Shown in pieces: positions 18,290-18,860 of a stretch of DNA of 64,000 nt. Position 1 is the stretch's first letter. Each line of letters starts with the position of its first letter. The DNA lies in the NCBI RefSeq assembly GCF_004010195.1, contig NC_057754.1:13392565-13456564 (forward strand), in the 5' to 3' direction. This DNA is from Chiloscyllium plagiosum. Its lineage: Eukaryota. Position numbers and translations under genes: made by a program. The notes beneath the pieces are model-generated. The model searched no databases and was not told the DNA's origin. It was given only the letters and a program-made list of their open reading frames with translations.

Positions 18290-18860
18290 GTGCAGGCTGT
18301 AAAATATGACCCACGAACCCTGATGTATGCCTATGAGTGGCGATTAAGCCAGCGAGTGATAGGTTCAGTGAGCGATTCACTTGCCCTGGAAGCAAGTAAC
18401 CATGTTAATCCTGTTAACACCGATTTTCTTGCTGGATATATGCTGCACTGCCCAGCACACACACATCGCGATGGCCCTGACGAACCATATGAGAAGGATT
18501 CGTTCAAGAGTTTGGTTAGACCAGATCACTTGTTATTTTGTGATTTTTGTTGGAGTGATCACAGATGTGCAGTTAGCGTGAACTTAACTAAGGTATCTGT
18601 AACAGCAAGTAGACCCTGCCTTTTCAATATGGAAGGCTCCGCTCCTCACTGGCGAAGGCGTCTGGTGACATGTGACAGGATTTGGGAGCATGGGTGCAAA
18701 AGGCACAAGGAACAAAATGTTGGGTCTTCAGAGACGATGTGGGTATCTGGTTCAATGCAGATATGCGGACGTATAGGAAGGAACTAAATTGGCTAACTCA
18801 CGCAGATAGGACAGTCCAGGTAACTCGCACTAGCCCTGAAAAGCCTAGGAGGATAGCCTG
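18290..18860 (+). pseudogene. Extra Pol domain between protease and RT, probable 2H phosphoesterase
   Basis: LHCPAH (His at 18446) and SAPH|..AK (His at 18647, frameshifted) fit two decayed H-x-T/S motifs 67 codons apart. Confidence 0.6.

Follow-up and report, generated by a model that had tools for sequence, protein, structure and literature searches.

A predicted CNPase-like 2H phosphoesterase domain in the Pol of an endogenous retrovirus family of the cartilaginous fish Chiloscyllium plagiosum

In a stretch of 64,000 nucleotides from Chiloscyllium plagiosum (referred to here, at its full length, as the window), a decayed provirus carries an extra segment between its protease and its reverse transcriptase (RT). 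A sequence-only reading of this locus had taken the segment for a probable 2H phosphoesterase domain encoded by a chondrichthyan retroviral lineage, and had leaned toward an antagonist of innate immunity. The locus therefore raises the questions of whether the segment is a domain at all, which known proteins it resembles, how it reached the retroviral pol gene, and what an intact copy might do in the virus.

The provirus in the window and its broken domain

The decayed provirus spans approximately 15580-21219 of the window, and all of its features lie on the plus strand. The 5' LTR (15580..16000) and the 3' LTR (20794..21219, preceded by a purine-rich tract) show a mismatch of 7.2% (K2P 0.075), and the 5' LTR is followed by a primer-binding-site-like 18-mer (16008..16025), which we take to resemble the tRNA-Pro site of MLV. 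A gag remnant with stops and frameshifts (16550..17800) includes a CCHC zinc knuckle (Pfam zf-CCHC, E 0.004, below the cut-off), and the retroviral protease remnant (17971..18265) contains in-frame stops and, in pairwise alignment with two natural siblings, 1-nt and 20-nt gaps at its end. Only the start of RT is retained (18889..19317), and the remainder of RT and RNase H are absent; similarity to the siblings ends at about 19317 and restarts at 19624, with an integrase remnant (19624..20430; Pfam rve, E 6e-08) that contains a 51-base run of N. The env remnant (20485..20790) retains a signal-like start and the end of the gene, and approximately 1.7-1.8 kb of env that is present in the sibling loci L040 and L046 is absent from the window at about 20552. 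The provirus is flanked by CAAG (at the upstream LTR copy) or TAAG (at the 5' LTR) and by CAGG, likely a 4-bp target duplication, and its surroundings are LINE-like. With regard to expression, two poly-A single-cell runs yielded 1 and 0 reads, from just 2-6% of their data.

Several duplications were also observed in and around the window. A 1.4-kb tandem duplication (13240-14655 and 14656-16059, 94-98% alike), either real or an assembly artefact, holds an extra copy of the LTR and primer-binding site upstream of the provirus, and further along the window are a tandem duplication of about 0.9 kb (24246-26069, identity 94-99%) and an array of about six 65-nt repeats that are 63-83% alike (56957-57572). 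The contig also holds, just outside the window and about 37 kb upstream, a 95-96% near-copy of the whole deleted provirus (L049, G000:C45:13370913-13376621), which is likely a segmental duplicate of the window provirus.

The predicted CNPase/RICH-like 2H phosphoesterase domain, mapped onto the window from a sibling domain that was folded, occupies 18284..18830 of pol and is frameshifted in the window copy. When measured on the frame of a sibling (P0001), in which Pfam RVP covers residues 69-166 and RT starts at about residue 385, the insert between the protease and the RT start is approximately 220 codons, of which approximately 170 fold as the domain; the sequence-only reading had put it at about 190 codons, against a short linker in standard gammaretroviruses. 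The first 2H motif reads L-H-C-P-A-H in the window copy (18443..18460, with the His at 18446-18448), and the second motif region (18638..18660) includes SAPH, which ends at 18649, has its His at 18647 and lies 67 codons from the His of LHCPAH. Both motifs share one stop-free frame, 18242-18784, and the second is broken by a gap of 7 nt at about 18645, relative to two natural siblings in pairwise alignment, that shifts the frame. The two motifs, the frameshift after SAPH and the guess that a 7-nt deletion had caused it were therefore correctly placed in the sequence-only reading. Since the first motif reads H-C-P and the second is frameshifted, the window copy does not hold the H-x-T/S pair, and with the further gaps and stops in the protease it is dead, as had been stated, and cannot make the protein.

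The domain in sibling proviruses and in other fishes

A DNA search of the host's own genome returned at least 40 matches, all at 85% or more (40 of 461 candidates scored), and a protein search returned at least 151 (from 854 candidates). The 30 loci that were fetched are the best matches to the window and are biased to its subfamily. The His of the first motif is present in all 30 copies. At the third position of this motif, 22 copies have Thr, 3 have Ile and 1 has Ala, and the remaining 4, which are the window and three near-copies, have Pro. The 7-nt gap at the second motif is common to 9 of the 30 copies, and 19 of the 21 others have the His of this motif; the segment is accordingly present with both motifs in sibling proviruses. 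In a tree of 29 rows, from which the short locus L020 was omitted, the nine gapped copies make up one side of one branch (100/99), which indicates that the break arose once and was later copied by duplication or with a helper virus; the shared break has no bearing on whether the domain was dispensable. In 13 of the 30 loci, versus 1 of 300 base-shuffled loci, a single open frame contains two H-x-T/S motifs separated by 55-75 residues; the count takes in any such pair and includes L018 and L019, whose pairs are not the domain's own because both loci carry the 7-nt gap. Natural frames that run without a stop from the protease through the domain into RT occur in two siblings and measure 460 and 561 residues. 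Tests of selection on the decayed copies were weak: in non-independent pairs, dN/dS was 0.58 for the domain, 0.53 for the protease, 0.47 for RT and 0.54 for the gag-pro spacer, and the third-position excess in the decayed copies had a 95% interval of 0.93-1.47.

The layout of the family is LTR-gag-pro-pol-env-LTR, and because some siblings retain env, the ancestor was likely an enveloped virus. A sibling env gave a TLV_coat match (gamma-type env TM), and this match, the layout and an RT close to those of fish ERVs together suggest that the window family is an epsilon-like (class I) ERV. The gammaretroviruses with which the segment had originally been compared are consequently the wrong yardstick, and the proper comparison is with epsilon-like fish retroviruses.

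As a separate observation, the env region of sibling proviruses opens with a signal-like stretch followed by an immunoglobulin V-set domain, ahead of a TLV_coat-type TM (L046). The V-set matches were obtained at L045:2025-2798 on the minus strand (Pfam PF07686, E 7.4e-06, 26.6 bits against a cut-off of 26) and at L040:7567-7857 on the plus strand (PF07686, E 2.7e-04); the window has lost this part of env at about 20552. The retroviral Env of these siblings thus appears to include an Ig module of host-like type, and a term search of main texts, as far as these were covered, found no mention of an Ig domain in a chondrichthyan Env.

To examine the domain beyond this host, protein databases were searched. 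Single-sequence word-indexed searches with the domain gave no match at E 0.001. When an alignment of natural copies served as the query for a full HMMER scan, 114 homologues were obtained at E ≤0.001. Among the 51 longer homologues that were scanned, 35 contain a retroviral protease and/or RT, 13 gave no family and 3 gave another. Of ten clusters looked up, six had names available, as did eight of ten long matches, and the homologues so named are all from teleosts, in 12 genera, mostly with the order protease-domain-RT. One further predicted protein (P0094) joins the domain to butyrophilin-type Ig domains and is likely an artefact of gene prediction in which an ERV was fused to a host gene.

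The two motifs are among the most conserved columns in these homologues, although the proteins are only about 30% identical: in the non-gap positions of 91 rows, the first His is kept in 65 of 82, the Thr in 71 of 82, the second His in 78 of 86 and the Ser/Thr in 63 of 85. Both motifs are kept in 40 of the 74 full rows and lost in 14. In nine homologues (P0013, P0020, P0021, P0025, P0030, P0041, P0045, P0066 and P0078), Gln or Tyr at the His of the first motif is paired with Pro at the Ser/Thr of the second, and in a quick, unfinished tree this pattern of His-to-Gln/Tyr with Ser-to-Pro recurs on several branches. These are possibly repeated pseudo-enzyme forms, and the recurrence of motif loss on several branches suggests that catalysis can go while the domain stays.

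Identity to 15 of the longer homologues, most of them teleost ERVs, was 28-41% in the domain, 32-44% in the protease and 51-71% at the RT start, as would be expected if the domain was inherited with pol. The corresponding segment of teleost epsilon-like ERVs also lies between protease and RT, and with an RT start this close to theirs, the proposed restriction of the domain to a chondrichthyan lineage does not stand. From these comparisons the domain appears to have arrived with the retroviral lineage. A host CNP exon showed no sequence similarity to the domain, and recent capture from the host CNP gene was rejected on this basis; an ancient capture of a CNPase-like domain by the ancestor of these fish retroviruses is likely.

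Predicted fold and structural neighbors

To assess the fold of the domain, an unbroken sibling domain was modeled with AF2. With 95 diverse alignment rows the model was confident (pLDDT 92.4, pTM 0.87); the same fold with only 12 near-identical rows gave a pLDDT of 28. In a Foldseek search of the PDB, goldfish RICH ranked first (E 1.5e-05) and all matches listed to E 0.001 were either RICH or CNPase, the identity to CNPase being 12-19% and the TM-scores approximately 0.5-0.65. Likewise, VIA-align gave a Z of 14.8 for CNPase (163 residues, rmsd 4.0) and 9.5 for the next match, with bacterial CPD/LigT proteins at 8.3-9.5 and the top 21 rows (Z ≥5) headed by 2H enzymes. The predicted two-lobed 2H fold, together with two H-x-T/S-hydrophobic motifs, identifies the family domain as a probable 2H phosphoesterase, and with CNPase closest and clear of other 2H groups, the model places it in a CNPase/RICH-like branch. 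Taken together with the H-x-T and H-x-S pairs of the siblings, these data support the original proposal of a 2H phosphoesterase domain in frame inside Pol.

The best structural match is the catalytic domain of vertebrate CNPase and fish RICH (PDB 2XMI, 2I3E and 1WOJ; Pfam PF05881). The first motif, L-H-C-T, is shared, and in a sequence profile it aligned, weakly, with the same motif of RICH (E 0.026-0.42); however, the viral domain is shorter (about 170 versus about 215 residues), is without the N-terminal P-loop domain or the membrane tail, and lies inside a viral polyprotein. In the ESM Atlas, tRNA-ligase CPD and 2H-SAK clusters were found at 0.86-0.88, as leads only. No match to PF05881 above the cut-off was obtained for the window frame, for any of three siblings or for any of 51 homologues, and the domain is thus CNPase-like by its predicted fold, yet not a member of that family. 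Motifs that had arisen by chance in a linker or insertion, with no domain around them, would fit the lack of any Pfam family for the domain on the window frame or the siblings and the lack of a PDB match when the single domain sequence was searched; the 114 homologues, the conservation of the motifs, and the confident 2H fold with its CNPase Z refute this reading, which retains almost no probability.

Among viral models (BFVD), the top three fold matches were Q2VF30_1, which is presumably the polyprotein of salmon swim bladder sarcoma virus, Q9WHI8 of WEHV1 and A4GTG3 of WDSV, the latter two of which carry the label envelope polyprotein. In the corrected WDSV Env, a review locates two membrane helices, at 850-874 and 1045-1069, on either side of a cytoplasmic loop (PMC3185748). 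Because this loop of approximately 170 residues is domain-sized, and the fold matches are labeled as Env, the walleye viruses likely carry the domain in Env rather than in Pol. It is possible that the domain relocated from one of these proteins to the other, and if the walleye match lies in the cytoplasmic loop, this may be a second placement in the particle interior.

Basta 2009 is reportedly the source for CNPase in epsilon-like ERVs of ray-finned fishes. Two reviews state that 2H/CNPase domains occur in fish retroviruses or teleost epsilon-like ERVs (PMC9503650) and that epsilon-like ERVs of ray-finned fishes can encode CNPase (PMC4977317); these reports, the WDSV and WEHV fold matches and the teleost ERV homologues bear out the suggestion in the sequence-only reading that such a domain exists in fish retroviruses. 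Since the reviews already report it, the type of domain is known and is not a discovery of kind. The known fish retroviral domains are from bony-fish hosts, whereas the host of the window family is a cartilaginous fish; epsilon-like ERVs have been reported in a cartilaginous fish, with no mention of the domain in the part of that report covered (PMC4422223).

Possible roles of the domain

We consider it slightly more probable than an even chance that the intact domain travels in the particle along with Pol and acts as a 2',3'-cyclic phosphodiesterase. From what is known of retroviral biology, the domain would be made within the Gag-Pro-Pol polyprotein and so would likely be packaged in the particle. 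By analogy with CNPase, its two histidines, as acid and base, would act on RNA ends or free nucleotides, opening their 2',3'-cyclic phosphates to leave a 2'-phosphate and a 3'-OH; nuclease-cut ends of viral RNA or of the tRNA primer would thereby be healed, or cyclic nucleotides would be cleared where reverse transcription starts. No mechanism that would make end-healing necessary to a retrovirus is known to us, and such a domain is, to our knowledge, absent from most retroviruses. CNPase converts 2',3'-cyclic phosphates to 2'-phosphates and can substitute for the CPD of yeast tRNA ligase (PMC4201822). The fold itself leaves the substrate unfixed in 2H enzymes, and no functional test of a fish-retrovirus domain was found in the open-access literature.

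The loss of both motifs in 14 of the 74 homologue rows, with Q/Y-C-T and H-x-P on separate branches, raises the alternative that the domain mainly binds RNA or Gag, or serves as a decoy for host CNP, with catalysis secondary. Host CNP binds HIV Gag and blocks assembly, according to two reports (PMC3832489, PMC5434554), and a CNP gene is present in the host genome; motif loss on separate branches and the binding of lentiviral Gag by CNP leave room for a non-catalytic role. However, few alignment columns are better conserved than those of the motifs, and because many homologues are gene predictions on decayed ERVs, the lost motifs may reflect decay. We regard a non-catalytic role as unlikely.

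The immune role originally favored was that of a 2',5'-phosphodiesterase that degrades 2-5A and blocks OAS-RNase L, as do coronavirus ns2 and rotavirus VP3. The viral 2',5'-phosphodiesterases (MHV ns2, the VP3 C-terminal domain and HKU5 ORF4b) and AKAP7/18 belong to the same 2H superfamily and have the 2H fold and two H-x-T/S motifs in common with the domain. A search of the host genome for OAS found a cluster of about three genes (15 exon matches; G000:C25:15317927-15378388), and a weaker OAS-like locus was seen at G000:C2:53496548-53503895. One search of the host genome with Pfam PF06479 (33 candidates scored) gave no RNase L and only two loci, both of which we take to be IRE1-like. OAS-RNase L was lost in the common ancestor of ray-finned fishes and retained in cartilaginous fishes (PMC10400998). 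The structural evidence does not point to this group: ns2 and AKAP18 reached Z 7.3 and VP3 5.8-6.3, versus 14.8 for CNPase, and HKU5 ORF4b ranked 42 among the viral models (E 0.11). Moreover, the members of this group are found in hosts with RNase L, whereas the named relatives of the domain are all in teleosts, which are without the pathway (PMC10400998); because the domain persists there with its motifs kept, antagonism of 2-5A is unlikely as the role of the family. We consider a 2-5A phosphodiesterase highly improbable, and neither the lean toward ns2 and VP3 nor the proposed antagonism of OAS-RNase L is upheld.

Fish retain cGAS-STING, in which reverse-transcribed DNA would raise 2'3'-cGAMP or related cyclic dinucleotides; a domain that destroys these would suit hosts without RNase L. 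Other viral 2H enzymes act in this manner, and one of them, phage Acb1, follows the three retrovirus matches as the next fold group among the viral models (rank 4, E 7e-04); however, Acb1 (Z 8.1) and the penguinpox cGAMP PDE (Z 5.2) are far below CNPase, both Acb1 and the avian poxvirus enzyme are stand-alone proteins, and the few Pol molecules per particle would presumably supply a small dose. Antagonism of cGAS-STING is thus quite unlikely in our view. A broader scenario, which we hold to be rather doubtful, is that one lineage carries a captured CNPase-derived nuclease in Pol and another carries it at the inner face of Env; inside the particle, this enzyme would destroy an immune signal made of cyclic nucleotides, for instance 2'3'-cGAMP, as reverse transcription takes place, and would be a counter-defence common to shark and teleost viruses.

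Altogether, with these data the range of the 2H domain known from fish retroviruses grows to include a large ERV family of a cartilaginous fish, and a confident model is added that points to CNPase and not to the antagonists of RNase L. A retroviral Pol with a fifth enzyme poses a small and testable question as to its substrate, and the finding would carry more weight if that substrate proved to be a second messenger of immunity, or if host CNP, an antiretroviral factor, were countered by the domain.
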